A DNA stretch of 64,000 nucleotides from Yuukianura sp. NJ FZ-2021. Its lineage: Eukaryota. The position numbers were made by a program, and so were the translations under genes. The notes below the pieces were generated by a model. It ran no database searches, had not been told where the DNA came from, and saw nothing but the letters and a program-made list of their open reading frames with translations. Of this stretch, positions 30,501 to 64,000 are shown in pieces (the stretch's first letter is position 1; the number at the start of each line of letters is the position of its first letter). The DNA lies in the NCBI GenBank assembly GCA_046563655.1, contig CM102286.1:14570001-14634000 (forward strand). Direction: 5' to 3'.

Positions 30501-33500
30501 AATCCTCTAGGCCCTTTTTACAAAACCCAACTAGGAGAGCCCTTATAACCAAATGTAAGGGCCCCCTTCTCTGTTTTTGGCCTGTTGCATCTGCTCTTTC
30601 GGATTTTTATGAATGGAAATGCCCTTATTCCCCGAACTGAGAAAAACATATGCTTTTGCATTCGGTTTTAAGGAAGTACCATCTGCCCTACCATGCCCAT
30701 AGTCTGCTCAACAGCTACCACCGGAGCCCTTAGCTAGCAGGGCCTTATAGGAGGGCCCTTAACTGTTTGGCCTTACAGGGCCCTTGGCCCTTGTGATCTG
30801 CCATCCGTTTCAATCCTCAATCCAGATGGTTCCGTTCCCCGGTATCAACAAGCAGCCGGCCTGCCATCATGCCGTCAGATGCAACAAGAAATCCGATAGA
30901 ATCGCACTTTTCAGCGTAGCAGAAAGCAGAAACAATGAATTTTTTTTTGAAATTTCAAACATCAATCAAGCCATCCTGCTGTGCTGTCGCACTTTTGCAA
31001 TTTCAGAACCATATGCAACTGTGGCACGCGTATGGCTGTGTGCACGGGGCTTAACGTCAATTAAAAATCTAAAATTAGCTGTTCATTTTCTCCTGCTAAA
31101 CAAAAACTGTCAATTTAAAATTTGTAAGTAAAAAGGTGTGAAAATCAATTTAAACCAGACGACAACATGTCTTTTGCTTTTTTTCAACAAAAACTGCCGA
31201 AACTAATGTTACGGTATGGCAGTTTCTTGTTTTTCCCCTTTTCTACCTAATTACAACTGGTACTTGAAAAGTACGTCGCATTTTAGGAATCGGATGAGAG
31301 ATTTTCCTTAAAACTAAAAAGTTTTCAGAAAAAAAAATTAGACAGGACGCCAGGCACACGAAAACACTCACGCAAGCAGCAGCCGGAAGGAATTATTACT
31401 TATTCCAAGTATCCTCCATATCCATGTTAATTCTGGACAAAAACGAACCGCAACTTCAAAATGAACCAAAATTACTTTCTACTAAAAGCAAAAGCGTATG
31501 GCGCTAAAACTCAAACTTTTAGTAAACACGGACATTCCTCGAGTCTGATTTAGTTATGATAATTGCGCTCTAAAACTCTCCAGCTTTTCCACTCCAAATC
31601 CAAAGAACGTAAAAAAATACTTTCAAAATTTCAGTAAACCAAAATTTAAATTTTGATCCCAACATTCCTTCCCGCTTCCCCTAAATTCTGCATAATTTCT
31701 GGATTTGAATTCTCGCCAAGTAGGTGACGATTAATTAAAGGCGGGAAACTTTGAATTTTGTTGAATTTGAACTTAAAAATCTGTGGAAACTTTGCATTTT
31801 TTTTTGAATTTTGAAGTTAAAAGTCTCACCTTCCATGCAGTACTCTCCGCTCCATCCCTGGTGACACAGAATGTCGCCACTCTCTGAGCAGTTGTAGTGT
31901 CCAAACTTGTCGTCCCTGGACTTGCAGTATCGGTTGCACTCCTCACCGTAGTAATTACTCAAACACACTACACGGTAACTGTAATTAAACGTTTGATTGA
32001 GTGGAGTCGTAAATGTTCGGGCTCTCCAGTTGGGGTCGATGGAGTGCCACTGTTGCATGGCCATTCGAGCGATCAGACCTACAACACATAAAACCCAATT
32101 ACTAACTTTGTCTCTTCTGGAAGGGGGAAGATAAATCGTGGCAACTAAAAAGACGACGAGGCTTATATTATTTTTAAGGAGTGACAACTTAAAACTCAAA
32201 ACTAGACCAAGACTCGTTTTTCAAAATATAACGAAGAGCAAAGGTAGAAATTGTCCCCTAGAGTTCAAAATGTAGTTCAGGTTAATGGAAAAGAGATTTG
32301 GAATTTTGGGTGGCAGGGACAAAGAATTGTCATGTCTTGGAAGGCTCCTTTCCGTGGGAGAGTTTTGGGACAAGGAAACGAGATGTCAAGATCCAGAAGA
32401 AGTAAAGGTAAAATACATGAAACAAAAAAGACAAAGTAAACCGGTCACTTTATAATTTATGGCTCTCTTTTCTCTTACCCGTAGTCTGCTGTGGTCCATT
32501 GTCAATCACATTCCAGGCTTCAATGATTAAGCTGAATGTACCCTGAAATCAAAGTCAAAAGATGAGAGACCTCATTAATCGTTCATAATTGGAACTTATA
32601 AAAAAAATTATACAAATTATAGAATTTATGGCGAATGGTGACGAGACTTCACAAAATTTTTACAATAAATTATGAACCCAACTCTTACTACTAAACTTCA
32701 TTAAACCTTATATAGAATCTGAGGTCGCGATAAATTCTATAATTTCTATAATCTACAAATTCCACAACTTCTAGGATCTATAAATTCTATCATTTCTATA
32801 ATCTGCAAAATCCACAATTTCTATAATCTATAAATTCCATCATTTCTGTAATCTTATAAATTCCGTAATTTCTATACTCTACCATAACTTCTATAATCGT
32901 CATAATTAGTTTATGACGCAAATTAATAACCACTTATTGATGTCGTACTGTTGCTAAAGACTAAAAGTATGACCTAAGGCAATAGTCTTTTAGTCTTGTT
33001 AGTTTAGGTTGGCATGTTGCCCTAATGTAAGAATTTAGCACTATGTCAGTGTCAGTGACTCTCTTAAGCCCATTGACTATAAATTATCTCCTAAGTATAA
33101 GTTGGAAATAAGTGAGCTCTTAAGCTGTAGAGGAAGAGTCGGACGGGATGATGAAGGAACGGAAGTGACGGGCAAAGGAGATTAAGAGCATGATTAAATT
33201 GAGGTTACTTACCGGCCACCGGAACTTGAATTCAAAGTCCCACTGGAGATCTTTGACACTATTGGAATTGATTGGAATAGAGTTGGCTTCACCAATGTAG
33301 CAGGGTCCATCTGAGTCAATACTAATTTGGTAGTTTTTGATACAAACTCGAAAGCGGGTTGAGCAGGGTGAGGAACAATTGGCAGTACAACACAACCTAT
33401 TGTCTAGAACTCCGTTGGGATTTGTGAATGAGTTGAGCTTGATACTGAATCGCCCTCCACTGGAAGCACTGGGTTGTGCACAGAGTGTGATGAAGAACAG

Positions 33501-33563
33501 TGTCACTGCTAATCTTAGGAGTTGACATGACTGGAGTAGTGAAGTTGAGCCAGTGATGGCCAT
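24581..33563 (-). CDS. Dl: Delta (DSL-family Notch ligand)
   Basis: Signal peptide, MNNL domain ([23 protein letters not shown]), DSL domain ([22 protein letters not shown]), DOS/EGF repeats ([23 protein letters not shown]) and one TM segment. No vWC domain. The last exon (24581-24807) joins in frame and ends MTQV*. Confidence 0.92.
26685..27020. mobile_element. MITE with 22-bp terminal inverted repeats in the last Delta intron
   Basis: TACCCTAAATCCTCGCATATAG at 26685 and CTATATGCGAGGATTTAGGGTA ending at 27020. The outer TA may be the target-site duplication. There is also an internal inverted repeat TATACGACTTTCCGAATTA / TAATTCGGAAAGTCGTATA. Confidence 0.8.
28678..28765. repeat. 21-bp tandem repeat, intronic
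   Basis: About four copies of aaaagtacaaaatttcccat. Confidence 0.7.
32728..32900. repeat. ~23-bp degenerate tandem repeat, intronic
   Basis: Units resembling ataaattctataatttctataatct. Confidence 0.65.
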
Positions 33564-36500
33564 GGTTCCTGCTTCGGAAGCGGGTAGTTCTGGACTGAAG
33601 TTGAGAATTGAAGTTGAGGGTAGATACAAGGTGGTAGATGGGAGACAGTAGCCTTAGTTCAGTGCTTGTTGCTCCAGTCAGGAGCATCTGTCTCACTGGG
33701 GATGAAAAGTCTGCTGGTCCGAGGCTGCAGATGGTATACACATGAGACACACAAAACAGCCACTTCCCAATAATGATACGCAGAGATGCAGGGCCGGAAC
33801 GCTCCCAACTGAAAATCATAACAAATCACGTTTTTAGTTTCCTCAAATATTGCTCTTTAACACAAACATTACATTTTCATGTATAAGGCAATTAAATTGC
33901 TAAAGCATTGTAGAAAATTTTGGAAATATCACTAACTCGTAGTACCCTATTTTCTAGCAGGCAGCGTGTTCTCTGCGAGAAAATACGGTATCAGCAAGTA
34001 AAAACTAATCGCAAGTTAATGGAATTCCTCAATTCAATTCAATCATTTCTCAAATTCCTTGTTTGCCAATACCTTTGATTTTGCTGATTTAAACTTGCAA
34101 TAAGATTGAGTCAGCTACAATCACTGGTAAAAACGAATGATTTCGAAAGCCATTGATTTGAAATTAAAGAAATTGATATTCCTGCTCTGTAGTAGATAAA
34201 ATACTAATTAATAATTAAAACTTAACTTGGGAATAATCTCTAACGTCACATTGGAAATATTTTTCAATGCAAGTCACTCAAATTACTCTCAAAAGCAAAA
34301 AGTTCCATGAGCAATCCAGCGAGTGATGCAGACCAGCTGACCTGTGACCCAAGATTACATTTATAATAATTTATCAACAACTTTGCAAATAAACGTGTCA
34401 AAATACACACACTCACTCACACAACTTCTTCCTACTTTTAAAGCAAAAGCAAAGCAGAGCATTGATTATTTGTAAGGGTAGGGGGCCCTTAAGTGCCCGT
34501 GCCGGCCCTGCAGTGTCTTGAAAGTTATAGGGAGTACTTAGGGGTTTGTGGGTCGTAGTTTGCAGCTGCTTTAAAGCTTCTTGAGTGGTGTTCGTAGTAA
34601 GAAGCTGCTGTTTGGCCGTTTCCTCTTCGGAAGGAGCTGCTGCTGGGACCTTGGGAAAAAAGAAGCCATGCTCTACAGGATGCAGGCAGCACAAAAAAAC
34701 AACATCCTTGGCTGCCTCCACTTAAACTCAAGCGGGCAACAAGAAACTTCCATGTGGCTCTGCAGTACTAAAAAGTAAAGGGTTGAATTCTACGTTGACA
34801 AAGTCATCTTCCATGATAGAAGTTCTATCAATCCATGTCACACATCATATCAGTCTCCAACTCCCTCCAAACGACACAATCATTCTACTCAATGAACCGC
34901 AAATTAAAGATTTGCACAGCAGTTAACAACGTACAAGCAAAAAATTGGAACAAAAAATACCGAGTCAATGAGTTGTCAATCGCAGCGGCAAGATTCAACT
35001 TCTTCAACTCGAGATTGCGCTGAATTCGCAGCAATATTCTTCCCAGTATCCAGCGATATACTTCCAAGTATCCAGCAATATGCTTCCAAGTATCCAACGA
35101 TACTTTTAGTTAGTGTTGGGTGTAACTTTGTGAGTTTAATGTGCTGGGAACGAAGCACTTTGAGGTCGTTGAAAAGCAGCGCTTGACGAGTCACTTGTTG
35201 ATTGGAGTAGAACGGGAGCTTAATTTGACTTGAAGTCTCGCCTCTTCATCTTGATTAGGAAACTGATAAGATTCACCTGATTAGTGGCACTACAAACAAA
35301 AAGAGAGAGAAAATTATGACTTTTCTCGGAGTAGTTAATAAAAGTTTTAAAAGGCCGTGGGGAATGAGTTCGTAGTCTCCCACAGTAAACAAGCCGGAGG
35401 GATGAAGTTGTGTAAAAGAGACAAGCACATGGGAATTATTTGAGAGATGGGAGTGGATCTTACACAAGCAAAAGTGGAAATGAATGACAACAACAAGTAA
35501 GCAGAGCAGAAGTGGCTTCTGACTATGTACTTCGTCATGACCTGTGGGAGTCAAAACGGGTTAATGGCAGAGTATATCGACTAAAACACTAAGACTAGAA
35601 GCTGAAGTGGCCAGAAGCAGAAGGTTAGCGTTGTTGGATGTTCGCAAAACCAAAAACTTCTTGGAAGTTGTTCACTTGAGCATTGAAGACGGTGAATGAG
35701 TGACACGCGACCAGGCGAGACCAATATCAAACTCCAAGGGGCCGCTGACGATAGTAAAGTTACAGTAAATGGTCCACTGACGATGACGTTCCTTAAGGGC
35801 ATCTGGGTACTTCAGTTTTAGATGATGTGATATGACTTTTGTACTTTTGGTTAGTGTCCAAGCAGTGGATGTTAGTTGGCCCGGATAAAAGTGGTGCGCA
35901 CATAGCCGTGACTAACCATCACATCGTCGCAGTTGGAAAGACGAGGGTGGAATGGCACTCATTCAAAAAACATTTATAAAAATGTAATCCTCGAATCTTA
36001 TTTTTGTTATTAAAGCTGCACATACTTGCAAGTTAGGTCGGCATCTTCTACTTTTTGGTCTTGACTTGACAGGAGCAGCAGAGATTATTTGAAGAATCTT
36101 GAATTTTGAGTTTCCTGATCCACGAACCACGATAAAGAGGATGATGAGAAGATGAGCTGATGGGAGGTGAATTAAATCTTATTAATGTGATTCCAAGATC
36201 ATGTTAGAGGTACTTTGGAAGGAATAAAGAATAAGTTATGAGAATAGATCTAAGTTATGATGGGTTAGTAGGATAGTACAACGGCACCAATCCTCAGCAG
36301 CCAAGAATAACAACAGGTAAGCTTAGTAAAAATGTATGAAGAAGAGGGGAGCCTTTTCCCTTCGTCACTTCTGAAGTACCCAACCGTGGAAGAAGATTCA
36401 AAAAGCAAAAGATGAAGCATTTGGGAAAAGTAGGGAAGCCAAAAGCAACTGGTATCCCTTAAGTCTCCCTGATTCTTGATTCTTTGAGAACCACGACTTC

Positions 36501-39541: not shown

Positions 39542-42500
39542 CTACACATACCATTCCTTTACACCGCTTCCCCCCGTTTTGTTAAATCTGCCACCCCCTT
39601 GCCCCCCACTCCCACTCCTCACCCCCGCACCCCCGTAGTCTATAACACTACTCTCCATTTTGAACATACTATCATCCTTCTTTCTAACCATGAAAAATAT
39701 GATCAGCATACAAACGATAATGATAAGAATGAGCGCAATGATGATGATAATGACCAGAGTGGACTCACTAGCCTCTGCAGTGAAGCTGTTCTTGGGGTCA
39801 ATGCCCTTGGGGATTGACCTCTGCGTGGGACTAGTGTGATCCTGCCAGTCGAAGATCCTATTGGTGGGTTGGGGGGTCCAGGAGGGGGTAGTGGGTGGTT
39901 TGAAGGGGGTCTTCTGGGGGGTCACGACGGGGGGAATGATAACGGCGGGGGTGAGCTTGGGGGTCGGCTCGGTGTAATGGTCCGTCCAATCATATGACTT
40001 GGTGATGACTGGTGGTTGACCTTTGGTTGTAGTTGAGGGGTCAAAGGGGGTGGGTTCTTGGCCCCCGGGGGTATAGCGGGGGTACCCCCCAGTGGTTTCG
40101 TTGGGGTAAGGGGATACCCCTGGGGTAACTCCGGGTGTATAGGAGGGAGTGTTGGATGTGATGATATTGTCGCTGGTCGTGGTGAACCAAGTGTTGACGG
40201 GGGGTCCGTCGCCGGAGGAACTGACGACGCAGTCCTCGTCGTCGCAGGGCACACTGGGCTTGAATGTGGAGTAGTTTGGAATGTAGACGGGAGTGATGAG
40301 TTCGTCACCGCCGCCGGCAGGGGGCACACAGTCGTCTTCGTCAATTGGACATGTCACAAGGCCAGACGATATCAAGTCATCTGACGACTTTTCAATTGGC
40401 TGATGAGAGGAGGCGGGAGCCTAAGCGGGAAATACAAAAAAAAAAGTTTCATATACTAAAGAAATCTTACATCCGTTTGTCCGTCTGTTATTGTTTTTGA
40501 AAAATTTTTATAAGCGGGAAAAAACAAAAAATTAAAAAACATAATTTTTATATACTAAAAAAATTTTGTGTGTCCGTCCGTTCTTGTTTTTGGGTTTTAC
40601 TGTAACGGCGATTCGCATTAATGCGAAAAATAATTTGAAAATTATGAAAAAAAAAAAATTATATAGTAAAAAAAAATCTATTTTGTTTGTCCGTAGTCAT
40701 TGTCTTTGGAGTAGTACTGTAATATCGGATTGACACAAAATAATTTGCAAATTATGAAAACAAAAAATTTTTTTCGAATTTTTTTTGATAAGGTGGTTGA
40801 CCCTTAAGCTCCTCCCCTTGCTTACCTTCATCATGAGATCATTGTAGTTATAACTAAAAGGATTTCCAATTAATTGGATCTGCGAATTAGAGTGCTCGTA
40901 CAGTTGCAGAAGATTTACTTTATTGATTATTATCCCAGACATTGAACCCTGGTCAAAACAATACAATCTTTTGTTAAAATCCAGTTTTTTTTTTGCAATT
41001 TTGAAATTTTGAAAAAAGTAGTTTTTTGAGGTACTTACAACAAAGGGTTCAAAAATGCGAGCCTTTTTCTTTGGACCATTACTAAATTTACCTCCAATGA
41101 GAATCTGGTTTAAGTCACGGAATATGGAAGGTGTTGTGCCTATACAAAAAAGATCAGTCAATTAACATTCTAGTTACGCCCCAGCCATCAATCATGTTTT
41201 TTCAAAATCAAGTTTTTCAAAATTCAAGTTTTTTGAATTTTTACCTCCCGGATTTTTCCAAATTTCCAATCCGTTGTCAATTTTTATTGTCCAGTTGCCT
41301 CCGTTTCTTAAAATGTTAACTAGGTGCCAATCTGAAGTTAATTTCGTTGGATGCGTTAGAGTTGTTTTGACAGAGTCAATTGATGAGCGGATACTGAGCA
41401 AACCAGATGACTAGAAAAAAAGGCGGGAAATTTAAATTTTTCAAATTTAAAAAAAAAAATCAAAAAATTCGTCTCGCGCGTTCCACTTTGGTTCTAATTT
41501 GGCTCGCTTGATTCTGATTGGCTCTTGGCGTTCAGGTTTGATTCTAATTGGTTCCCGCTCATTTAGTTTTGAATTTTTTGAATCTCCCGCTCTTTTTGCT
41601 TACCATTTCGACTAGAATGAAGTCATTGTTGTCGAGAGACATGAACTGAATGAGAGCTCCGTTGCTCTTGGAAGATTTCAATTTGAAACTAATTTTGTCT
41701 TCCTTGGACGAGCGTGGAGCGGGCACGGTGTAGACGAGGACCGTGGAATTAAAAAAGTACTCCACATCTGATTCGTTACAAAACTTCCCTTTCATACTCG
41801 TCAGTTCACAGTTGCATTCATTATTGGCACAAGTCCCAGTACATGTGGAGTCTGTACATGTCGGTTCTAAGGCAAACAAAGTTCAAAAAGTTAATTGGAG
41901 TAACTCAATCCCACACTTGGTTCCGCTAGATTTTGAATTAAAAGCGGGTTTTTTAAATTTTTGGAGTAAAATTTCTTTGGCGGGAGTTTTTTTTTTAAAA
42001 CTGACCGTGACATCCTCTCAGAATCCCGTTGCTGCCTAAATTTTCTTGCATCAAGTCGACAATGTCGCCTAGTTGCGTGTTGGCCAAGCACCCATTGAAT
42101 CCGGACGTTCGTTGCATAGACGGCAGCAGCAGGTCGTTCGGCAACCCACCTGAAATGCCCGGCAAATTTTAGGTTTCAGATTTTCAAATTCTCGTACTAA
42201 AACAGCCACAAACAGAAACTAAAAATTCAAAAATGTCAAATCCAGAACCAAAACTACAAAAACTGGAGGGGAAAAGAAATAAAAATCAACCAAAATATTC
42301 TTTTCAATTTTTTTTTCAAGTTCGTACTGAAACGCTCAAAGTTCAAAAGCCCAAAATTAAAAACTTCAAAATTCAAAAGCTCGAAATTGAACAGCTCAAA
42401 ATTCAAAAATCTGGAAACCGCCGAAAAAAAATTGTCAAAATTTTTTAGAAAATTTGTCCCGCCAAATTTTTCGTACCTATGTAGAGGACGCCCTTGAGCT

Positions 42501-45500
42501 TGATGACCCCGCCTGGAGAAACTCTCTTGTTGACCTCATTGTCAACAACTAAAAGGTCAACGCCCTTTAGCTTTTTAACGATCAAGCGATGCCATTTGCC
42601 GTCACTAACATAGACGCTGCTCGTAATCCGAACATCTCCGACGGAACTTTTGTAGCTGTACTCCACATAGCCATTGACCAACTCCAGTAAAATGTGGTCA
42701 TAACCGCCATTATAAAGAATGAGAGCATTGTGGTCATTGGTGATGAGCTTAAATCCAAGGTCAATGGCACTGTACACGTTCAGTTGGGGCAACTTGACAT
42801 AGCTGGTCAAGGTCACGGGGTCAATGACCTCGGAGTCCCCGGGGGGACTTGTGTAGTTAAAAAGATTCAGGTTTGTTAGCAAGTTGAAGTTGTTCAGAAT
42901 GAGCTGAGAAATGTGGCCAATGAAGGGCTGAAACGGCGGCGAGATTTGAAGAGAGTTGTATGATGATGTTATGTTTTTAATTGACAGTTCACCTAATTTG
43001 AAATTCAAATTTCATAAAATTTCATTTTTTTATTTTTTTTTGGAAAAATGTTGATGCTTGCCATTGATGCTTGGTTCGTTGTCAACTTGGAGGCGGATGG
43101 AGTTGCCCAGTCTTGTGTACTTGACTAGATGCCACTGATTGTCATTTAGATTTGAACCTGTGCTTAAAATCTTTTCCCGCCCATTAACATTCACGACGAC
43201 TTTGAGCCGCGTAAAATCCAAACTGAGAAGAAAAGAGTCCTGGGAAACAGAAGATTTGAGCAGCAGAATATTTCCTGTTACACGAAATCACACAAAAAGT
43301 ACAAGGAATTAATTAATAATCTTCATTATTAATCAAAACAGTTCAAAAGTTAAAGAAAAAAGAACAAAAACTGGTTTTTGTGGTTTACTTTTCAAGAGTT
43401 ATCAAAGATAAAGATTGGATCGTGGGAGAGGAAGATTTTGAAAAAGATGTTTGAATTTTAATTTTGAAAAAGGCGCCATTTACCGTGTATTTTATAACTC
43501 CTGAACCTCAGTTTGACTTCCTCGGCCTGAAAAGTGCCGGACCATGCTAGAGTGACTGTGTTGAAGCCATTGAATGACAAAACGTTGTTGGGCAATTGGC
43601 AGTTGATGCCGGTGAAGTTGGTGTGACTGCAGTCACAAATGTAGCGATTCCAGCCGTCAATGCACTTTCCGTTCACACACGGGTTTGACACGCAGAAACC
43701 GCTTGAGCCAGGAGGGCAGTGGGGTCGAAGTGTCGCTAAAACAATGAAAGAACAACATTTTTTTCAAACTCAAAAATCTAGTGAAAAAAATTGTCCGGGG
43801 AAAAATTTTCTGGGAAAGTTGTCCAGGGAGAGAAAAAATTCCATTGGAGAAAATTGTCCGGAGAAAAATTTCCAGGGAAGGTTGCAAATTTATCAAGGGA
43901 GCGAGAAATCCATGAAAAAAAAATTGTCTGAGGAAAAATTTCTTGGGAAAGTTTTCCAGCGAGAAGGAAATCCGTTGAAATATTGCAGAAAAGTTTCCTA
44001 GGAAAGTTTGTCCAGGTTTGTTAGGAAGAAATCCATTAAAACAATTGTCCGGGGAAAACCTTCCTAAGAAAGTTGTACAGGGAGGAAAAATTCCATAGCA
44101 GAAAACTGGTCGGGGAAAATTTTTTAGTGAAGTTGTACAGGGAGAAACGGATTGAAAAAAGGTCGTCCAGGGAAAATTTTCCGCGGACAAAGTTTCTATC
44201 GCACTTTCTAACCTTCATCTTGCTGGACAATGATGGAGTTTAGATTGATCCTTTCATTGTTGATGCTGAGATCTCCGAAGCATCCGATGTAGGAGTAGCC
44301 CATGTTGCTGGCCCAAGATCGGTCGTTGACCCCGCTAATCACGAGGTCACTCCCAAGTGACACGTCGCTGTTGAAGTCAATCGTCACATTGTCTAGCTTG
44401 ATGAACCCAGCTCTCTTGTCCTTGAAGACATGGATTGTATGCCACTTGGAATCAACTACTGTGTCTTCGCTAACCTAAAAATCAACAATTATGTTAAGTT
44501 TAGTTTAGAATTAGGCTAGAGGTCAACTGAGGTCACTGACCTGCGTAAATAAACCACCGAGCAGGAGATAGAGATTGCCCGAGACGAGTTCGATGATGAA
44601 CGTGGTTGATTGGATGAGGATTCCGTTTGGTTCGTTTGTTCTAAAACTGAACTGGATTGACGTTGGAGTAGAGAGCTGCGTGGCCAAGGTCACGTAGGAA
44701 GTGGGGTGGGTCAGAGTGATGATAGAAGAGGTCATCATCTGGTTATGGTAACTTGGACTCACGTGACCTCGCTTGTTCTAAAATTTCGAAAAAGTAAAAA
44801 AAAAATTTTGAATTCGATCACGTTTTCAATTTGGCAAAAAAAAATCAGGTAATTTTTTTTCAGGATCTCAATGACCTGGACAGCAGTTTTTGTAAGGTCA
44901 TTGACCTGAAAAATGTTTTTGAAAGGTCGTTGGCCTGGAAAACATTTTTTCTAAGGTCAAATTGAGGTCATTGACCTCCATTTTGTTGAGAATTACCTCA
45001 GGTGGAGTTTCGATGCAATCAAATGAAACGTCCCCATGAATTCTTATGAGTTGATTTCCATTTCTTGCCAATTCAATGAGGTTCAAAACCAAAGTGTCTG
45101 CTTTGTACGTCACCTAAAAAGAAGTCCAAACAGAGTGACAATAAGTAGACACAGAGTCCATTTGCTATCTGATTCTGGAGTAAATTGGGCACTTTCTCCT
45201 CTCCACTTTCCCTCCTGCCCCAAATTGTGCTTTTTCCAGTACAAAACAGGATGGAGTGAGACTAAATTAGTCCCGAGGGACTAAATTAGGCCTGGGAGAC
45301 AGTAATTTACCTTGCGCAAGCAGCCATTAAATCCATGATGGTACAACTCCTTCGTATTGTTCGTCCAGCCGCCGAGAGTGATGTAATTGGATGATAGGAG
45401 ACTAAATTGACCACTCAGAGTCCAGCGGTCGTAGTGCACTGAATCCAGGATGGTCGTGACCTGAAAACAGGTCAAAGGTCAAATTTTTACAAAAGGTCAC

Positions 45501-48073
45501 GGGGTGACGGCGAAGGGTCTCACTTTGCCCCGAAATTTTAAACTTACGTGACACAAACTGGTCGTTTTGGTCATCTTTGTTAGCAAAAGAGAAAAGAAGA
45601 GAGAAAATTTTTTAAAGAAACTTTTTAGAGAAATATTTAGCGGAAAAGTTAGAGTTGTGCGAATGCAGTTAGTTTTTGATGGTTAGAGTTATGCACATTG
45701 ACTTTTTAAAGATATGCGCATGAGCAGTACTTACTTCTTGCGTTTTTCGTTTGATGATGACGGAATGCCATTGGTTATCATTGAATTTGAGGTTGTTGGG
45801 TCCAATGAGTGTTTCGAGTGGTCCATTGCCCAAGTTGATTGAGATTGTGAGGTGACCAGCGACTAAGTAAATTGAAATGTAGTCGACGTTGTCGCCAGCG
45901 TAGAAAATGAGGCCATTCCCGAGCCTTGTTTTGAACAAAAGTTCAACTTCGTCTTGGGCAGAAATCAGGCCTTGGTTCAACTTTAAGTAAATGTAGGACT
46001 TGGAGTTGAAGTGGGCTGAGGCTGGCGGTTTCTCTAAAAAGTTTTCAAAAAAGTTTAAAGTTTTCTTTTTGAAATTTTGAAAAGTTTTAAAATTTTGAAC
46101 TATGGAAATGTCACCTCGCTCGCAGACGACTCCCTCGTAGTCAATGAGGCTGCAGTCACAGAGTGGACCGTTGTCAGTGGAGATGCAGTAGCCACCGTGG
46201 AGACACGGATCGTAGCGGTCACAGGAACTGTGCGGTGGGTTGCTAAGAAGGCCCTGAAATTTTGAAAAATTTCGAAATTTAAAACACCCGCATTTTTTAA
46301 AACAAATAAAATGTTAAACTCGTTTCTCTTAAAAAATGGTAGCGTTTTAACTCTGACAGAAACTGGAGTGAAATGTTTCCTGCACTTTCTTCGGAAAAAT
46401 AAAATTTTGGCTTTTCGAATGAAAAAATGTGAATTTTTTTTTTGAAAAATCAAATTTCAAAGTCAACCGCCCCGTGCAGTATTGATAACAGTAATTAAAA
46501 TATTGGCTTTCCCATGCGGAGTAATTGATCTGTTGAAAGAGACATTTTGTTCCAAAAATTTTGAAAAGGCTGAACATGAGCATATTTGTTCCACGAAAAT
46601 AAAATTTTGAAAACACGACAGGAATTTGGCAAGTAACTGAAAAGACGAATCAATTTCTTGGCATCGTTCCTTCACTTTTCAGGTTTTACGTTTTAAAAAT
46701 GAGCTCTTAAATTTTGTTTGAAAAGACAAGAAACAGCAAGTTGAACAGAAAGAGAAAATGTAGTTTTTTGAAAACTCAAAATTTGGCACCAAAACAACAG
46801 GAGATGAAAGCGACTTTTTATTCAAAGTGGAAACTCATGTCGTGGGACACTTAATCTTTTTTAAGCCTTTTCCACTTTTTCGGGTTTTTAAAAAACCGAA
46901 AATGTATTATTGACACACAAGGGTCCAAATTATTAAGGCTTTTACTGAAGCCACCGTTGGGAGGAAAAAACAAACAATTTTTGTTTTTAAAAATATTTTT
47001 TTATCAAAACAGGACATAAATCATTGCCAATTTTCATCTGCTCACGAAAATACCGTAATTCCTTGCATATACCACACTGCAAGAAATGCTTTTCAAAATA
47101 TTTCAACATTACAAAACATTCTGTGATACGGGGAAATTTTCTGAAATGAGAATGAACGCCTATGTTATTTTAGAGACTTTACGGTACTATTAAAAATATT
47201 TTTTTAAATATTATTAAATGTTTTTTTTATAAAATATTATTTAAAAAACACGATTGTGTACAACAGTCAGAAATGAAATCGAAAATATTTTGGTAGAGTA
47301 AGCGCCCATGGAATTTGCCAGAATTTACGGTACTTTTTATTTAAAAAAAATACGCACCACTATTTAAAGCATACGACAGTAACGAAAAATGAAATCAATT
47401 TTTTTTAAGAATAGCCGCCCGTGCTATATTCGAGACTTTACGGTACTTTTTATAAAAATAGCCCAATGATGTAGAACAGTACCTTCCACTCAATGACAGT
47501 GACACTTCTGCCTCCATATCCAATGTTTCTGATCCCTCCAGCATATTTCGGTTCGAAGACGACACTCGGTAGAGCCAGTTCGTCCAGTCGACTGTTCCAG
47601 ATATTCGGTAGTCCTCCGACATACACTTTCTCAAAGTACAGGTCACTCAGGTCACTGTCACTCCTGCTCACTCCCACGAATCCATCCACAATCAGTTTAG
47701 TGTTGTAAGTGGTTTTGTTAATTTGGACTCTGTGCCACAGTGCGTTGTTAAGGTGTGAGCCCACTGTGAGAACTTTCGTCCCAGAACCAATGTTGTACCT
47801 CAATCTGAGTGTGGAATCCACCAACTTCAGTTCGTAAAAGTAATTGTCAGCATCAGTGTACAAAATTAGTCCACTCGGAGATGTCGTAGAGAATTCCAGA
47901 GTGAGGGGACTGTTGCTAGGCGACCACGGGGGGTAGAGAGCATAGGAGTCCGGTGACCCAGACAACAACAACGAACAGTCTACTGAAGTCAGCAACCCTA
48001 GTATAGCCAAGGTCAGCACTCCAAGCACTGCTGACCTTTGACCTTTGACCTCTGACCTCCCGTTGACCTCCAT
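39542..48073 (-). CDS. Nrx-1: Alpha-neurexin (LNS/laminin G and EGF repeats, TM, PDZ-binding motif)
   Basis: Signal peptide then LNS1 with LALPSVVFEP, EGF repeats (PCLHGG.CISTDNGP.CDC; PCVNGKCIDGWNRYICDCS), further LNS exons, a Cys-loop CPIDEDDC, a Pro/Thr stalk, one TM segment and the C-terminus KEWYV*. Confidence 0.92.
43785..44190. repeat. Degenerate ~30-bp tandem repeat filling a neurexin intron
   Basis: Repeated aaaattgtccggggaaaaattt / aaagttgtacagggag units. Confidence 0.65.
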
Positions 48074-50280
48074 TTTGACCTTGGCGGAAGTTGTAAAGTG
48101 TCGGATTTTACATGATGATTTAGTTTGGGGAGTGGTCGAAGCACCTCCGAAAGGTTCTAGAGCGACCTTGTCCAGGTCAGGGGTCAATGACCTTCACATG
48201 ACCTTGGGATGAGATATTCTAAGGCGGGAAAATTGAAAATTTGAAAAAGTTGGTGTTTTTTGGAGTAATTGGACCACTTAGAATTAAACTGTGAGTGTAC
48301 TAAAGACGGACACGACAAAAGGAGGGTCTCTCCCTGTTGTCGGGCGCGCAGGAATGAGCTTTCTCTGAATCCACTCCACGAAAAAAAAAGTTTGGAGAAA
48401 GTGGGGCTGGAACCGACGACTGTCGAACTACAACTGCTCGTCTTGCGCCAACACGCTTACTTTTTCTTACCTTAACGACTAACATAGTAGTATGCTTGAC
48501 AATGCTAAAAAGCTCCGAAGAAAAAGGAACTTTGTTCTTATTGGGATTGACATAAGGCCAAGATCAATAACACGTACGGTGTAGCCCGAACCGAACAACG
48601 CCGGGAACACCGAAACTGTTTTGAACAAAGTTTAAAAAAAAATCGGGCTGAGAAACTTTCCTGAGAAACTTTTAGGTGTAGGTTAGGTTTACGTTAGCAC
48701 ATGGAGAAAGTTGAAGTTTAGACAAGCTGACACAAGGCTAAGGCCGAGGACGACTCAGCATAAACACGCTGTTCCATTCGTCATTCGATCCTCATTTGAA
48801 CACGTTTGAACATGCCAAAAAAATCTCAAAACGCTGCTGTTACACGTTGGCAAAAACTTTGGCAAACCGTCCCGACCGATTTTTTTTCGTACTAAACGCA
48901 TTGCCATACATACCTAACACTTACATTATGAATTCGTCTGAATTAGTGTTATAAATTTATAAGAATTATAGAATTTATATTTTTTATAGTTTTTTGTTTG
49001 GAATAGAACTCATAACCGCGAAAAAAAAGGCGTGTAACGTTTTTGCGGTTTGCAAGTCGAAAATTACTCAACTCTTCACCAGGATTTGAGTTGTCCTGTG
49101 CCGGAAGTTGTGTTTTTAGAACAGCGTTTTTAGAACAAAGTTTTTTTAGAACAAAAAATGGCCCAGTTTGTGACATGTGGGACAGCTTCCGTTGTCACCC
49201 AACAATTCATTTTGTCATTAACTCAAAGTGACGGGTGCTAATGGCAAATTCTTTTTGTCACTCTGCACTCGGCGCTGAAACAGATTTAGAAAGTGCAAAA
49301 TCCATAACTTTTAGTCTTCTCCTGCCAGAAGGTGTCAACGACGTGGGCAGGGCGCGAAAATTCAAATTCTCAAGGGCTCCAAAAAATTTGAATTTTTTCT
49401 TTTGAAAATTTGAAACAGTTTTATGACCCCTGGTGACCCTTTGAAATTTTCCCTCCTGCTGGGTGGCAAAAAGTGGCCCTGTTCCTTGGACACCTTTGAG
49501 CAAATAAAGTCATAAACTTTGGACACTTTTAACTTCTGAGCAAATGAGGAGAATAATAGAAAATGAGCGGGGAGATTTAAAATTTTACAGCTTTTTCGTT
49601 TGAAGTTTGGAGGTTGTGAGTGGAGGGAACTTTTGAAATTGGCTGTCAATCACCGTACTTTTCTTTTTGCACAAACTAAGCCTAGCCTTTGACCTTTCTT
49701 TGGTCTACCTTCACCACCTCCCTAGGTGACCAAAGTTTCACCTTAGGCCAATACGTTGTAAATCAATCAAGTAATTGTAAAAGTGTTCAAGTGAATAGGA
49801 AATTGGGTTTTCTGGAAGCGGTGACAGTGGGGCATGTCACCCAACTTTTTCAAAAACAATTTAAAACTGCACTAGGGTGGGACTGGGTGGCACCATAAAC
49901 CCTCAACACACCAATTCCAACAAATTGCTACAAATTGACGTTGATAAATGATAGATTCCTAGCGATTAGTTAACATTAATCGATACAAAACCGGATTTTT
50001 AAAAAAATCGAAAGCACGCAATGAATTTTTGGAACAATAAGAATTTTTAAAACAATAACAAAAGTTTTTAGAAGCTAAATGGGGCGAGGTGAGACAACAA
50101 ATTTTCAGCCCGCGAAGTTCATATTCATCAAAATGTAAACATTGATTTTTCAAATCCTTTTTTCTTTGATTGCAATTTTTCAAGGTTTCTTTTAGAATTA
50201 AATCGGTTTTTACATAATTTTTATGCCATCACGGTAGTGCAGTTAATTAGTTAATCACTGTTAATTGTTAATTAGTTAAG

Positions 50281-57954: not shown

Positions 57955-58074
57955 ATGCCAAGAGCACCCGGGGTTCCCAGGCGGTCACCCATCCAAGTAC
58001 TAACCGGGCCCGACGTTGCTTAACTTCAGTGATCGGACGAGAACTGGTGCTTTCAACGTGGTATGGACCTTGGC
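57955..58074 (-). rRNA. 5S: 5S ribosomal RNA, single dispersed copy
   Basis: Reverse complement GCCAAGGTCCATACCACGTTGAAAGCACC...GTACTTGGATGGGTGACCGCCTGGGAAC...CTTGGCAT is 120 nt long and is followed by an oligo-T Pol III terminator. Confidence 0.97.
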
Positions 58075-58394
58075 GAAGGCAAGCACAAAGTTTACTACTT
58101 TTCTCATTCCTCGAATTCCACAATATCCTGTTTGTTGTTGATCAAGTTATGTTAATAAACTAATGTAAACAACATTAGCTCATTTGTTACAGGTCAAACG
58201 CCTCTGTGTTCAAGGTCACCTTCCATTCTCTCTCTCACATCAGATAAACACAGATGCAATTTGTCATTAAGTTATGCCAACAACAGGGTTAGTTTAGCTC
58301 CATTGTTATTTTTTTAGAAGAATTAACACACTTGCCAAAATTTTCACGGAAGTTAGCCAAAACATTTGCAAAATTTGCACGGAAGTCAGCGATC

Positions 58395-59942
58395 ATGATT
58401 TTGTCTCGCTTGCTTCGCAACAATTCGAATCAACTGTGCAAGTTTTCAACGGTTTTTGTCCGAACCAAATCAGCTGATGGCGATTCCGAAGAAATTTTTG
58501 CCGGGGCTAAACCGTACTCCGAAGTTCCGAAACCCAGAGGACTACCGTTTCTCGGTACCGTACCGTTCTACATTTTGAACGGTGGCGGGAAGTACTTGCA
58601 CGACTACGTTCTCCGTCGACACCAACAACTCGGACCAATTTACCGTGAAAAGTACAGTACAGAACCCTTTGAAGTTTTGTTCATCGGAGATGTAGAGGGC
58701 GCCAGAGATGTGTATCGCAACGAAGGCAAAACGCCTCTCTCGTTTGTGATTGGCGGAGAAAAACTTTTTATGAAAGTGAGTGGCGTAAAGCGTGGACTTT
58801 TGTTTTCTCAAGGTCAAGAGTGGCTTCAATTACGGCGACCAATGAATCATCTTCTGCTCAAGCGCAAAGACTACTTTGATAACTTTGACCTCACTAAGCA
58901 GGTCATCGAACAACACTTACAGAAATGGGCAAATGGCTCTCAGGTCAAGGTCAATGACCTCGGGGTCAAAGTAAACGAAATCGGCGTTTGCACTTTTGGA
59001 GCATTTGCGTTTGGCGGGACTTTTGAATCTCATCGCGTCGAAATTGAATCTGACGCCAATGGATTTTATCAGCTGACGAAAGACTACTGGGAAGGCAACA
59101 TGGCCATGCAAATTATCCCGCCAAAGTGGGCCCACTATTTGAAATTACCGCTTTGGTCAAAATTTGAAACCGCCATTTTCAAAATGCTGGCAATTGGAAA
59201 TCGCTGGACGGAATTGGCTCAACGGGATTTGGAAAATTTGGAAGCCTTCAACAAAGGATTTTTGCATATCATGCTGGAAGAATACAACGATCGTGAAAAA
59301 GAATCGGCGCGCAGAGTTTTTGCCGATTTCATCGCAGCTCTAGAAAGTGAAACGACCATGATTCAGTGGATTCTGTACGTCATGGGCCGAAATCCTCAAG
59401 TACAGGAAAAACTTTTTGAAGAACTTGAGGTCACAGGTCAAGGTCAAAGGTCATTGACCTGGAAAGACACCCAACGACTTCCATATCTCAACGCTTGTGT
59501 CAAAGAGGCTCTTCGGATGTTTCCGTCCAATTGTTTCACGGTTCGGATTTTACCGGAAGATTGTTTGGTCAAAGGCTACCGAATTCCTGGCGGAACAATT
59601 GCCGCTGTGGCGCTGATGTCGGTTCAGCGTGACCCCGATATTTTTCCGGATCCGGATAAATTTTGGCCGGAACGTTGGATCCGGTCTACCGACACTGTGG
59701 ACACTTTGGGTTCGGAAGTCGGTAAGCCTCTGGGTGTCCACGGATGTCAACCGTACTTGCCCTTTGCCTGGGGCTCTTCCCGTGGATGCATCTTTCGGCA
59801 AATATCGGTTCGGCGCATGACTCTATTTTTAGCAACTATTGTTAAATTGTATTCTTTTACGACACAAGAAGTTAAGCCGGTCATGAGGTCACTCATGATT
59901 CCTGACAGGGACATCGGATTGACCCTCCAGAAAAGAAACTAA
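58395..59942 (+). CDS. Mitochondrial-clan cytochrome P450, CYP315/shadow-like, intronless
   Basis: Presequence, PKPRGLPFLG, LHDYVLRRHQQLGPIYRE (CYP315-like), GQEW..LR, EALR, PERW and the heme Cys in PFAWGSSRGCIFR. Confidence 0.8.
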   Translation: MILSRLLRNNSNQLCKFSTVFVRTKSADGDSEEIFAGAKPYSEVPKPRGLPFLGTVPFYILNGGGKYLHDYVLRRHQQLGPIYREKYSTEPFEVLFIGDVEGARDVYRNEGKTPLSFVIGGEKLFMKVSGVKRGLLFSQGQEWLQLRRPMNHLLLKRKDYFDNFDLTKQVIEQHLQKWANGSQVKVNDLGVKVNEIGVCTFGAFAFGGTFESHRVEIESDANGFYQLTKDYWEGNMAMQIIPPKWAHYLKLPLWSKFETAIFKMLAIGNRWTELAQRDLENLEAFNKGFLHIMLEEYNDREKESARRVFADFIAALESETTMIQWILYVMGRNPQVQEKLFEELEVTGQGQRSLTWKDTQRLPYLNACVKEALRMFPSNCFTVRILPEDCLVKGYRIPGGTIAAVALMSVQRDPDIFPDPDKFWPERWIRSTDTVDTLGSEVGKPLGVHGCQPYLPFAWGSSRGCIFRQISVRRMTLFLATIVKLYSFTTQEVKPVMRSLMIPDRDIGLTLQKRN

Positions 59943-60723
59943 ACTAACCTTGAACTAAAAAAAAGTAACCTAATCGAAATTTTTATTGAATGAAAATTTT
60001 ATTGATCTGTTCCAAGTATTTTCTTAGAAATTTTGCTATAAGTATTTTCGGAAAAATTGTTATTATTTTCTTTTGGTAGGTATTTTCTAAGAAATTTTGC
60101 TATAAGAATTTTCGGAAAAATTGTTATAAGTATTTTCGAATTTTTGTTTCTGTATCGTACATCTGTTATTTAAAAATTCTGGTTTTTGTTTGTGGTTGTG
60201 TTGAAATTGTAAATAAAAATTGGGACTTTGAAACAAAATATTTTGAAAAAACTAAGTTTAGAAACGCAATTCGGAGTATCGTGAGTCATCGACCATTCAG
60301 TTATCGTGTTCAAACAACAGAATTTGATCCTTCGTGAACTAGATTCTGAAATGGCCTTTCTGGATTCGGATGCTTAGCAAGCATTTTTCTTGTTCTTAGA
60401 TCTCCCCCTATGTTATTCTTATCTTCCTTGTCAACACTTAAATTTTAAGCAATTACTCCCCTTTGTTCCTCAAATTTCACTAACATCAGCATTTACACCC
60501 TCCTCCACCCCTGTCTTCAAGAAACTTCGTTGTTTCAATTTTTCAAACAAGAATTTAGCCACAGTCGACTTTTTTCAGTACAAGGAACAGCTACAAAAAA
60601 TAAAAACTTTTCCAAATCCAAAAATTCCGTTAAAAATATAGTTTGGAAAAAACACAGTTGAAACTGTTGGAAAAATAAACTGGAAAGTGAGTGTAGAAAC
60701 GGCGGGAAAAATTGAAAATCAAG

Positions 60724-63267
60724 ATGGCATATCCTCACACGCGAAAAGATCCGTCGTTCAGGGAACTTTTGTTGGCCATTATTGCATTTGTGGATTTGGT
60801 AATCAAGTTTTAACTAACTTTAACTTCTGTTTTAACTTTAACTTCAGGTTTAACCTTAATTGCAGTTTTAACCTTAATTTCAATTACAATGAAATATTTT
60901 AGTGCCTGGGAGTAATTACATTGTTTGCTACTTTGCCACCCATCATTGTCATTCTGCTCGCTGGTGACTCGGGACCATTTGCATTCAATGCGGGTATTTA
61001 AATTAATTAAATTAGTTAAATATTTAATTGTAATTACTCGTAATTACCTTAATTGTAATTATCTTAATTGTAATTACTGGGTTCAGGGACAATCGACTAT
61101 GTTCGGATCATTGGAACTTTTTCAATTGCATTTTTTGCTGTGGTTGAAGTGCTGAGTGGAGCTACATATTTGTATTGCAGTGACTGCTGTGTAAGTAAAG
61201 GTCAAAGGTCACTTCTTTTTCAAAATTACTTTTTTAAATTTTGAACTATTTTTGTTTTGTCCTTTTAGAGATCAAAGTCCGTTTGTTTCGGTTTCAAATC
61301 CTTCGTGTTCTTGGTTTTGGAAGTTTGTGAATTTGCCATTCCACTTTGCGTTGTTAAAAATTACTCTGAAATGGTCGATTTTCTGATCACTGCTCCAGGA
61401 TTTTATTGTTATGTTCTGTATCTACTCAAATTCAATCCACTTACAATTGGACTCTTTGTGTACCAAGCAATTGCGTGCTTAATTGTCATTTGTTCCAAAA
61501 ATAAGAAAAGTGCGGACCGAAAGCAGCTTCAAATTCCGCAGCGCAGACGCCAGGAAAAGAGTATTCCACTTTTGCCCATCTCTGTCTACTCCCAACCGCC
61601 AATCATCACTCAAGTTCAAAATGGCGCCAATTCTTCTGCTTCAATTTTGTTTCCGACCTTGCGTGTAAGCGATTTAGACAGTGTTGCAATCGCTGGAAGT
61701 TCAAGGACATGCTCATGGAACTACTCCGCAGTAAGATTTTTTTTATTAAAATGTTCAAAAGTTTGAAAACTTTCATTTTGTTTCAAAATTTTTAGAACAA
61801 ACTGGGAACTTTTTCGGATTCATCGTCAGTTTCGCTCTACAAACGGCTGAGATCGAATTGTATCAAAAGTCGCGTACTCTACGAAGATCCAGATTTTCCA
61901 GCCACTTTTGCATCACTTAATACCGAAAATGGAAGACAAATCAAATGGAAACGACCGCATGTAACTCACTGTCATCTGAATTTAATTTAATTAATCAAGA
62001 TTAACTTTAATTGACTTGTATTTTAACAATTTTAATAATTTGACAATTACTCCAGGAGATTCATAGCAATCCTAAGTTTTTCAGCGGAAATGGTGTCAAT
62101 GGCGTTACTAGGTTCGATGTGAAACAGGGAGACCTAGGTGAAAAATCATCCTGGTTAATCTAATTAGTTAATTAATTTTAATGTTAATTAAAATGATAAT
62201 GTTAACTTAACATATTCTTTAGGCGATTGTTGGCTTCTTGCTGCCATTGCCAACTTGACGCTTCACCCTACACTGTTTCATCGTGTAGTGCCTGTAGACA
62301 ATGCAGAGGACTTGAAGGACAGGAAGGAATATGCTGGAATCTGCCACTTCAAGTAATCAAAAATTAACTAACTTGTGTTAATTAATTAAATTTGTTAATT
62401 AATTAAATTTTCATGATTTTAGCTTCTGTGACGTCAGTGGCAACTGGAGAGAAGTGATCATCGACGACCGTTTGCCTACTGTAGATGGACAACTCGTCTT
62501 CATGACCTCTGCAGACGCTGATGAATTCTGGAGTTGCTTATTGGAAAAGGCTTTTGCCAAGTAAAATACCAAAAAAGAACTTTTAGAAAATTTGACCTAT
62601 GACATTTGACCTTGGATTTAGATTTAAAGGGGGCTCTTATGGGGACTTGGAAGGGGGCAACCCTGGAGTGGCCATGCACCACTTCACTGGTGGAACTATT
62701 GAAAACATTGATTTACAAAGAGGTCACAAGGACGTTACTCTTTCTGCTCTCTTTCAAATGATGGACAGTGCTCTCATGGCGGGAAACTTAATTTCAGCTG
62801 CCATTTTACGAATTGTAAGCTTTTTTTTAGTGGTCTTGACCTTTGACCTTTACTTTGTTGACCTTTGACCATTGCATTTTGCTTTCTTTTTAAGCCTGGA
62901 GAAAAGGACGGACTATTTGGGGGTCACGCTTACTCGATCACTGGAGTGAAGCGCCTGTTGCTGCAAAGCAGAGGTGCTGTGATGCTGATTCGAATTCGAA
63001 ATCCCTGGGGAACTGGAGATGAATGGACTGGAGAATGGAAAGATGGGTAAGGTCATTGACCTTTGACATTCAGCTTCACTCTTGATTAATTTGAATAATC
63101 AATTAACTTAAATGTCCAGACACCCCTTGTGGAACCAAGTGGACAAGAGGACTCGGAAGGACCTTGAACTCATCTTTGAAGAAGACGGAGAATTTTGGTT
63201 TCCGATGAAGGAATTCAAAAAATATTTTGATCTTCTGGAAATCTGCTACATCAATTCCACCGTCTAA
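60724..63267 (+). CDS. Calpain catalytic core (CysPc) with an N-terminal multi-pass transmembrane domain, 11 exons, 579 aa
   Basis: Exons 60724-60798, 60903-60993, 61087-61190, 61269-61730, 61796-61960, 62056-62137, 62223-62352, 62423-62560, 62622-62814, 62895-63046, 63120-63267 are all GT-AG and in frame. Motifs: [51 protein letters not shown]. Confidence 0.85.
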
Positions 63268-63757
63268 GGTCACATGTTCCACTCTCTCGGACATTTTAAA
63301 CGCTTTCCGAACGTTTTTATTTTAAAATCTGCCCATCCATACTCCATATTATTTACGTTACAGTTACAATTATTTTAGTTATGGACTTACTTAATTAACT
63401 CAATTTAATTGATGTTGTTACGAAATTTGGTTAATTAAGCGTCATTTCCTTTGATTTGACCTACTGCCCCCGCCATCTAACGACTACAGAATAAAATTAA
63501 ATTGGCGGGAAAAGGTGACAGTGGTTTGAGTGGTAGCTGTTATTAGTGCAACCGCAAAAATAAAAACACACCGCAAAAAAGTTTAATAAATGTGCTTTAT
63601 GATTTTAATTGCAAGCAACTAATCTCGATTAGTTAGTACTTAATTTTTGAAACGATTCATTGATTGTTGCGGTGCGAAGGTCAACTTAATTAATTGCAGC
63701 AACATACTAAAAGCTGCTTTGAATAATCAGCGATTGCCACTGCCTGACACTGAGAGT

Positions 63758-64000
63758 ATGGAGAATGCTGGAGCGAGTTTTGGACGGATGAAGTTGAAGA
63801 ATGCGGTTAACTTGAGGTCAGTTTAATCCTTTAATCGCATTCGTAGTCATGAAATTGATTAGCAAATTATGGATAATTTTTAGAGCAATCGTTTTTATGG
63901 AAAACGTATTTGAATCGTTTCTTCATTCTAGGGAATTTATGGAAACCAGAAGCATGGAATTCGAGTTGGATGCTGATTCTGAAGACATATCCTTTCAAAG
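63758..64000 (+). CDS. 5' part of an unidentified gene, truncated by the window end
   Basis: ATG at 63758 gives MENAGASFGRMKLKNAVNL. A GT-AG intron then leads to an in-frame exon from 63932 (EFMETRSMEFELDADSEDISFQ). Confidence 0.4.

Follow-up and report, generated by a model that had tools for sequence, protein, structure and literature searches.

Can an animal genome encode a calpain that is anchored in the membrane by its own polypeptide chain? This question is raised by a gene on the forward strand of a 64,000-nucleotide stretch of contig CM102286.1 from Yuukianura sp. NJ FZ-2021 (GenBank assembly GCA_046563655.1, positions 14,570,001 to 14,634,000; this whole stretch is called the window below, and positions are counted from its first letter). 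A preliminary description, made from the letters alone, had proposed that several transmembrane (TM) helices are fused here to a calpain protease core (CysPc). Here, we show using a rebuilt gene model, profile and homology searches, hydropathy analysis, structure prediction and comparison with an ortholog on a metagenome contig that the fused membrane-anchored calpain gene is probably real. Its product may be a calpain core that is tethered to the membrane, responds to Ca2+, cleaves substrates close to that membrane and is perhaps released by cleavage of its own linker, an interpretation to which we give a probability of roughly 0.68.

The gene model was rebuilt from the letters of the window by three-frame translation of 60600-63400 and explicit joining of exons. 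As originally described, eleven exons with GT-AG junctions join into 1740 nt of open frame, encoding 579 residues that end in EICYINSTV before a TAA, and the phase-0 junction 61730/61796, at which the TM/linker part meets the calpain part, was recovered as well (Table 1). All ten introns of the gene (60724-63267, +) begin with GT and end with AG, and they measure 61-104 nt. The GC content is 44.2% in the exons (TM exons, 42.3%; calpain exons, 45.5%) versus 23.0% in the introns, and both groups of exons look like coding sequence by this measure. The introns (e.g. at 60800-60900, 61000-61080, 62570-62620 and 62820-62890) consist mostly of short repeated words such as ttaac/ttaattaa and gacctttgacc.

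By its domain matches and its catalytic triad, the protein is a member of the calpain superfamily (peptidase C2, CysPc). When the translations were scanned exon by exon against Pfam, Peptidase_C2 (PF00648; gathering score 23.8 bits) was matched colinearly by exons 5, 7, 8, 9, 10 and 11, at profile positions 1-32, 57-94, 99-139, 143-196, 209-253 and 256-296, respectively, so that the matches span positions 1-296 of 297; five of the six exceed the gathering score individually. Exon 6 (27 aa) matched nothing in Pfam, nor in the Protein Data Bank (PDB) by phmmer. The PDB search returned calpain protease cores for exons 7, 8, 9, 10 and 11, and in four of these five (exons 7, 8, 10 and 11) the best match is a classical calpain (calpain-1, -2, -8 or -9). 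Exon 9 is matched best by calpain-5 (E 3.9e-4 vs 0.014 for calpain-1), which ranks worse for exons 8, 10 and 11 and is not listed for exon 7. Once spliced, residues 255-577 align with four full-length classical calpains, namely fish calpain-9-type proteins and a Priapulus calpain-B-like protein, at 42-44% identity (E 1e-71 to 1e-75). The pre-core segment LYEDPDFPA is common to the model and the classical calpains, and exon 5 aligns to residues 30-71 of a classical calpain. The intact triad that had been read from the sequence withstands this comparison, as C329 (GDCW), H491 (GHAY) and N516 (RNPW) line up with the equivalent motifs in calpain cores of solved structure. Of the positions that we take, from mini-calpain structures, to belong to the Ca2+ sites of the core, those in the TRFD loop (R and D), in NPWG..EW...W.D (E and D) and in EDGEFW are conserved, but the acidic one before FTGG is Val.

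Homologous proteins were also sought with single exons. The search with exon 10 gave eleven candidates, six of them at E <= 0.001, and these six are the four full-length classical calpains and two short fragments; it revealed no annotated ortholog, none of them being closer than 60% identity over 50 aa. A search for longer homologous proteins was likewise negative, as none of the 231 candidates for exon 4 and none of the 28 for exon 9 gave a score. Within the window, tblastn of the model detected no second copy of either the calpain or the TM domain.

The N-terminal part of the rebuilt model contains every hydrophobic stretch quoted in the preliminary description, together with the basic SKNKK...RRR segment. 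Kyte-Doolittle hydropathy with a 19-residue window yields five peaks, at aa 15-33 (2.73), 63-81 (1.95), 101-119 (2.25), 125-143 (1.57) and 148-166 (2.24), of which that at aa 125-143 is the weakest. The ortholog on the metagenome contig L001, which is described below, has four peaks, and the weak fourth one of the window protein corresponds there to a stretch broken by K-H-K and K. The estimate of about four to five TM helices therefore holds in that hydrophobic helices are evident, but their exact count does not follow, as the ortholog has only four. In a four-helix layout the basic parts (the N-tail, loop 2 with its cysteines and the very basic segment after the last TM) share one side and the acidic or neutral loops 1 and 3 the other, from which an N-in/C-in tetraspan may be inferred by the positive-inside rule. 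Such a topology would place the protease on the cytosolic face, tethered by a flexible linker.

Within the helices, four polar residues (D24, E76, E108 and Q156) are the same in the two orthologs, although the TM region as a whole is ~30% identical. The motifs NY, after TM3, and LLK.N are identical too, and the TM2 region aligns between the two proteins as T[IM]D.V..IG..SI...A..EV.SG. Because the intramembrane acidic residues D24, E76 and E108 are conserved together with Q156, we suggest that the TM domain does more than anchor, for instance that it binds cations or assembles with a partner. No Pfam family was matched by the TM/linker exons of either ortholog; DUF5480 (E 0.12) and DUF5765 (E 0.11) appeared below threshold and were rejected as noise. 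With exon 4 (154 aa) as query, a HMMER/phmmer scan of 1.84 billion representative proteins found one match, P0001, a 144-aa unnamed open reading frame from a metagenome (E 7.1e-6 and 36% identity by HMMER; 33% and E 5e-12 by BLASTP).

The linker that connects the basic segment to the core comprises ~100 aa. An AlphaFold2 model of exon 4 alone, computed from a two-sequence alignment (mean pLDDT 48.7), places helices at exon residues 3-28, 32-54 and 57-88 and leaves the remainder of the exon unstructured at low confidence, which is a weak hint that the linker is disordered. A few motifs, IPLLP, NG..SA and L[FY]PTL, the last with an acidic D.DS cluster after it, are kept in both orthologs (window ~61635-61690; L001 ~1845-1885), and the linker is otherwise not conserved between them. 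The LYPTL of L001 (LFPTL in the window) resembles a YPxL-type motif, which we presume to be a binding motif for ALIX.

What indicates that the TM and calpain parts belong to one protein? Within the window, the position of the start codons is informative. Methionines occur in the model only at aa 1, 125, 397 and later, the catalytic cysteine is residue 329, and the frame of exon 5 opens directly after an in-frame TAG (61793-61795). Since no Met of their own would keep the triad, the calpain exons need upstream coding exons for an intact core, and the nearest of these are the TM exons, across an intron of only 65 nt; on these grounds, it is very unlikely that the calpain exons form a gene of their own with an intact core.

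Beyond the window, the open reading frame P0001 sits on L001, a metagenome contig of 2679 bp and the one locus recovered in the metagenome scan. With the window model as query, tblastn places a TM/linker homolog at 1494-1883 of this contig and calpain segments at 2080-2442 and 2429-2554, all on the same strand. A GT-AG model with exons 1017-1082, 1198-1377, 1467-1943, 2023-2205, 2299-2368 and 2433-2556 runs from an ATG through TM exons with four hydrophobic segments, the basic segment and the linker to the CysPc exons; its frame is open throughout and continues into LYEDLEFPA...GDCWFIAALANLTLH...YAGIFHF, where the contig ends. Between this protein and that of the window, 132 of 347 aligned positions are identical (38%). 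The N-terminal 96 aa, which lie outside the tblastn match, also resemble L001, with a Smith-Waterman score of 68 versus 26.8 +/- 5.0 for shuffled sequences, a score reached by none of 1000 shuffles.

The two genes also agree in their intron positions and phases, at five of the first seven introns of the window gene: after V-D-[LV], before the TM3 exon (intron 3, within about a codon), at KRP[HS]|E[IV]H, at G|DCW (phase 1) and after HF (phase 2). The ATG exon of L001 ends at the same position and phase as exon 1 of the window. The intron between linker and core is in phase 0 in both genes (1944-2022 in L001) and is equivalent in place, but it lies in sequence that cannot be aligned, and intron 2 of the window has no counterpart in L001, in which a single exon corresponds to exons 2 and 3. 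A second genome thus keeps the TM-linker-CysPc layout. Because two diverged genomes share this collinear, frame-preserving arrangement, the evidence for a single fused protein is good, though indirect.

At the other end of the protein, the LEIC motif marks the end of CysPc in the aligned classical calpains, and the model stops six codons later. The earlier claim that neither a CBSW nor a penta-EF-hand (PEF) domain follows stands for the window, by Pfam as well as by tblastn, and does not carry beyond it, as the window ends 733 nt past the stop. No open frame of 63268-64000 contains a Pfam match to Calpain_III (PF01067) or an EF-hand, and tblastn of two full-length classical calpains against the window aligned their CysPc parts only, with no match to CBSW or PEF. 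On the same strand, 63699-63817 is the probable first coding exon of a next gene (ATG...MENAGASFGRMKLKNAVNLR, donor GTCAGT) and 63880-64000 a following exon that leaves the window; these two exons match no Pfam family, and the first shows no similarity to calpains.

Table 1. Coordinates of the predicted calpain gene and its features, in window positions
Feature	Position	Strand	Description
Exon 1	60724-60798	+	Start codon; aa 1-25, comprising a short N-tail and the first part of TM1; holds conserved D24
Exon 2	60903-60993	+	aa 26-55, remainder of TM1 (aa ~15-46) and loop 1
Exon 3	61087-61190	+	aa 56-90; predicted TM2 at aa 63-85 (61107-61175) with conserved E76, then Cys-rich loop CSDCC
Exon 4	61269-61730	+	aa 91-244, last predicted helices, basic segment, Ser/Pro/Gln-rich linker
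TM3 (exon 4)	61287-61355	+	aa 97-119, conserved E108
Weak hydrophobic segment (exon 4)	61371-61427	+	aa 125-143
Last TM (exon 4)	61440-61493	+	aa 148-165, conserved Q156
Basic segment after last TM (exon 4)	61494-61559	+	Precedes the Ser/Pro/Gln-rich linker
Intron 4	61731-61795	+	65 nt, phase 0, between TM/linker exon and first calpain exon; in-frame TAG at 61793-61795
Exon 5	61796-61960	+	aa 245-299, linker end, pre-core segment, CysPc start; no Met; Peptidase_C2 positions 1-32
Exon 6	62056-62137	+	CysPc, 27 aa
Exons 7, 8	62223-62352, 62423-62560	+	CysPc
Exons 9, 10, 11	62622-62814, 62895-63046, 63120-63267	+	CysPc
CysPc core (Peptidase_C2)	61880-63246	+	aa ~273-573, exons 5-11; colinear Pfam matches
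Catalytic Cys329 codon (GDCW)	62228-62230	+	
Catalytic His491 codon (GHAYS)	62925-62927	+	
Catalytic Asn516 codon (RNPWG)	63000-63002	+	
Stop codon TAA	63265-63267	+	Six codons past the LEIC motif
First AATAAA after stop	63490-63495	+	223 nt downstream; candidate polyadenylation signal, motif only

Where does such a protein stand among the calpains described so far? In a database screen for calpains with TM domains, Safranek et al defined four types (Safranek et al, 2023; PMC10762896). The listed members of their Type 1, MEM-Linker-CysPc, are protist proteins of 1319-1888 aa with 21-24 TM segments, most of which have the catalytic C/H/N, and the TML calpains of Table S1 mostly have 19-24 TM segments (PMC10762896). 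By architecture alone, the protein encoded in the window fits Type 1, in that an N-terminal membrane domain, a linker and CysPc follow each other in the same order and CBSW is lacking. It differs in its 4-5 TM segments within ~165 aa, its total length of 579 aa and its animal genome, whereas the Type 1 members listed there are from protists; the names Metazoa, Animalia, Opisthokonta, Rotifera, Nematoda and Arthropoda occur nowhere in the whole of Table S1. In line with the preliminary description, no described animal example turned up in the literature searched, but MEM-Linker-CysPc was already a named category in protists.

DEK1 represents Type 2, MEM-Linker(LGL)-CysPc-CBSW, with 21-24 TM segments and a large loop (PMC10762896, PMC13413365); plant DEK1 proteins are listed with 2100-2300 aa (Table S1 of PMC10762896), and DEK1 has been linked to mechanosensitive Ca2+ channel activity (PMC5647327). 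The window protein resembles DEK1 in having a calpain core tethered to the membrane via a long linker, and it is plausible to extend the analogy to local control by Ca2+ and to release by autolysis; in contrast, the large loop, LGL and CBSW of DEK1 are all absent from the window. DEK1/TML calpains are recognised by a large membrane domain with over 15 TM segments (Zhao et al, 2012; Safranek et al, 2023), and here 4-5 hydropathy peaks are found within aa 15-166. No DEK1-like protein was retrieved with exon 4 among the 1.84 billion representatives, exons 1-3 being too short for this search and outside it. Judged on TM number, CBSW, LGL and TM-domain homology, the protein is not a DEK1/TML member, and the comparison supports a TM domain that shares neither size nor sequence with anchors of the DEK1 type, which have ~20 or more TM segments. 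That the anchored calpain may have evolved independently, as first proposed, is a reasonable inference, with comparisons of the core covering PDB cores and six database hits. The architecture class itself is a known one (Type 1).

The core of the window protein resembles that of the classical animal calpains (CAPN1/2/8/9, CalpA/B type) in its sequence identity, its intact triad and most of its core Ca2+-site residues. Unlike in these proteins, no CBSW/C2L or PEF was found, and the N-terminal anchor region is replaced by the TM bundle and linker. Zhao et al (2012; PMC3563603) state that the ancestors of Amoebozoa and Opisthokonta lost the TML-calpains, that short-TM variants termed CysPc-TMS are common to Tetrahymena and Paramecium, and that CysPc-only calpains are rare in multicellular organisms. 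The ciliate CysPc-TMS proteins likewise combine a calpain core with few TM helices; here, in contrast, the helices stand at the N-terminus and the genome is that of an animal. A 2026 review sets the TM calpains of plants and algae against the cytosolic calpains of animals (PMC13413365), and the word "transmembrane" is absent from the account of atypical animal calpains by Joyce et al (2012). Among the papers listed in our literature searches for transmembrane, membrane-anchored or membrane-bound calpains, none concerns a genome-encoded animal TM calpain, and databases other than those searched may contain predicted proteins of this design that lack annotation.

Several observations weigh against the membrane-tethered protease proposed here. 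Both the 61730/61796 junction and the 3' end are predictions from sequence, and GTCTAA, a weak alternative donor two codons before the stop, makes splicing past 64000 conceivable. One ortholog was found, on a partial contig that ends just past the GDCW exon and does not cover the C-terminus. Intron 4 contains an ATTAAA (61745); such motifs occur in five AT-rich introns, and a TM-only isoform produced by retention of intron 4 and early polyadenylation is conceivable. The number of helices, four or five, is less certain than their presence, so that the side faced by the N-terminus is ambiguous; five helices would put the N-terminus outside. Within the core, the acidic position of site 1 (GG...E/D.. 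before FTGG) is Val, where the classical calpain P0002 has Glu and P0007 has Asp. Moreover, bare classical calpain cores are weak enzymes, and activity is not assured.

Could two adjacent genes have been joined wrongly? A small tetraspan gene would then consist of exons 1-4 with read-through into intron 4, and a soluble CysPc-only calpain would follow. The junction being a prediction, this view can point to the frame of exon 4, which runs 11 codons into intron 4 before a stop, to the ATTAAA within that intron and to linker sequence around the junction that is not conserved. However, the two parts are only 65 nt apart, a TAG stands in frame before exon 5, and exon 5 has no Met, the next one (aa 397) lying past Cys329. 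L001 also keeps the order of the parts and the frame, with a short phase-0 intron, at 38% identity, and we regard a false fusion as very improbable. Quite improbable as well, in our view, is that the 3' end is incomplete and that the donor before the TAA leads to CBSW (possibly PEF) exons beyond 64000, which would make a TM-CysPc-CBSW protein. The GT two codons before the stop, the 733 nt that separate the stop from the window end, and the rarity stated for CysPc-only calpains in multicellular organisms (PMC3563603) speak for such an extension. Yet GTCTAA is a poor donor, an AATAAA follows at 63490, a new ATG-containing exon near 63700-63817 has its own acceptor/donor context and no calpain similarity, and CBSW/PEF similarity is found nowhere in the window.

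The fusion might also be real and of little consequence, with an N-terminus that serves as a passive anchor or organelle-targeting device, or with a gene that is a lineage-specific, weakly expressed or decaying copy of minor function. The family appears very narrow, with one match in 1.84 billion representatives and one metagenome locus, and its TM region is fast-evolving, at ~30% identity between the orthologs. Against it speak a frame that is intact over 11 exons in the window and over 6 exons in L001, the conservation of the buried D24, E76, E108 and Q156 and of several loop motifs despite low overall identity, and an intact triad; we hold this explanation to be highly improbable.

The genes around the calpain gene bear out the preliminary assumption that the genome is that of an animal, as APP-family and Delta/Jagged-type genes share the window with it. 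Amyloid precursor proteins and DSL ligands are products of animal genes. Lying on the reverse strand are a gene of the APP family (APP_N, APP_Cu_bd, APP_E2) at 13540-16189, one for a Notch ligand of Delta/Jagged type (MNNL, DSL, EGF repeats) at 27113-33653 and one with LamG/EGF repeats at 42448-48193, and further genes of the window encode tectonic, E2F, ELO, CAP-Gly, galactosyltransferase and P450 proteins. The gene density is about one per 5 kb, which together with the short introns suggests a compact invertebrate genome.

The calpain gene is directly preceded by a cytochrome P450 gene at 58293-59939 (+), a single uninterrupted frame of 549 aa (Pfam p450, E 1e-56); it is intronless, unlike its neighbours, which have many introns. 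Between the P450 and a galactosyltransferase-like gene stands a complete 5S rRNA gene at 57956-58074 (-) (Rfam RF00001, 108 bits, model positions 1-120 of 120), which was the only Rfam match in the window; it is alone there and seems to be a dispersed copy, not a member of an array. The putative promoter region of the calpain gene, ~600 nt upstream of its start codon, contains at 60017-60130 (+) two to three direct copies of a ~45-60 nt unit (…gtattttcttagaaattttgctataag.attttcggaaaaattgtta…).

How might the membrane-tethered calpain work? One compact metazoan gene would give rise to a 579-aa protein with an N-terminal bundle of four (possibly five) TM helices, followed by a strongly basic juxtamembrane segment, the disordered linker and a terminal CysPc with its Cys-His-Asn triad. 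Held by the flexible linker on the cytosolic face, the protease would probably be activated through Ca2+ binding within the core, as in isolated classical calpain cores, and its substrates would be limited to proteins near the same membrane. Self-cleavage of the linker, as proposed for DEK1, may release the core. A bolder version would make the tetraspan domain a cation-binding or ion-conducting sensor or a channel-docking subunit, in which D24, E76 and E108 (with Q156) couple a local Ca2+ or membrane signal to the core. The protein would then be an independently invented, miniature animal counterpart of the DEK1 design in a little-sampled invertebrate lineage. We consider this extension speculative and unlikely.

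In conclusion, reviews of the family describe animal calpains as cytosolic and membrane-anchored calpains as belonging to plants and protists. If the membrane-tethered calpain core described here is confirmed, membrane tethering of a calpain would have arisen again, with a quite different and small anchor. The protein would also offer a minimal, 579-aa system, without CBSW, PEF or a small subunit, in which to study the control of a calpain core by nearness to the membrane and by local Ca2+, which is difficult in the 2100-2300-aa DEK1 proteins of plants.

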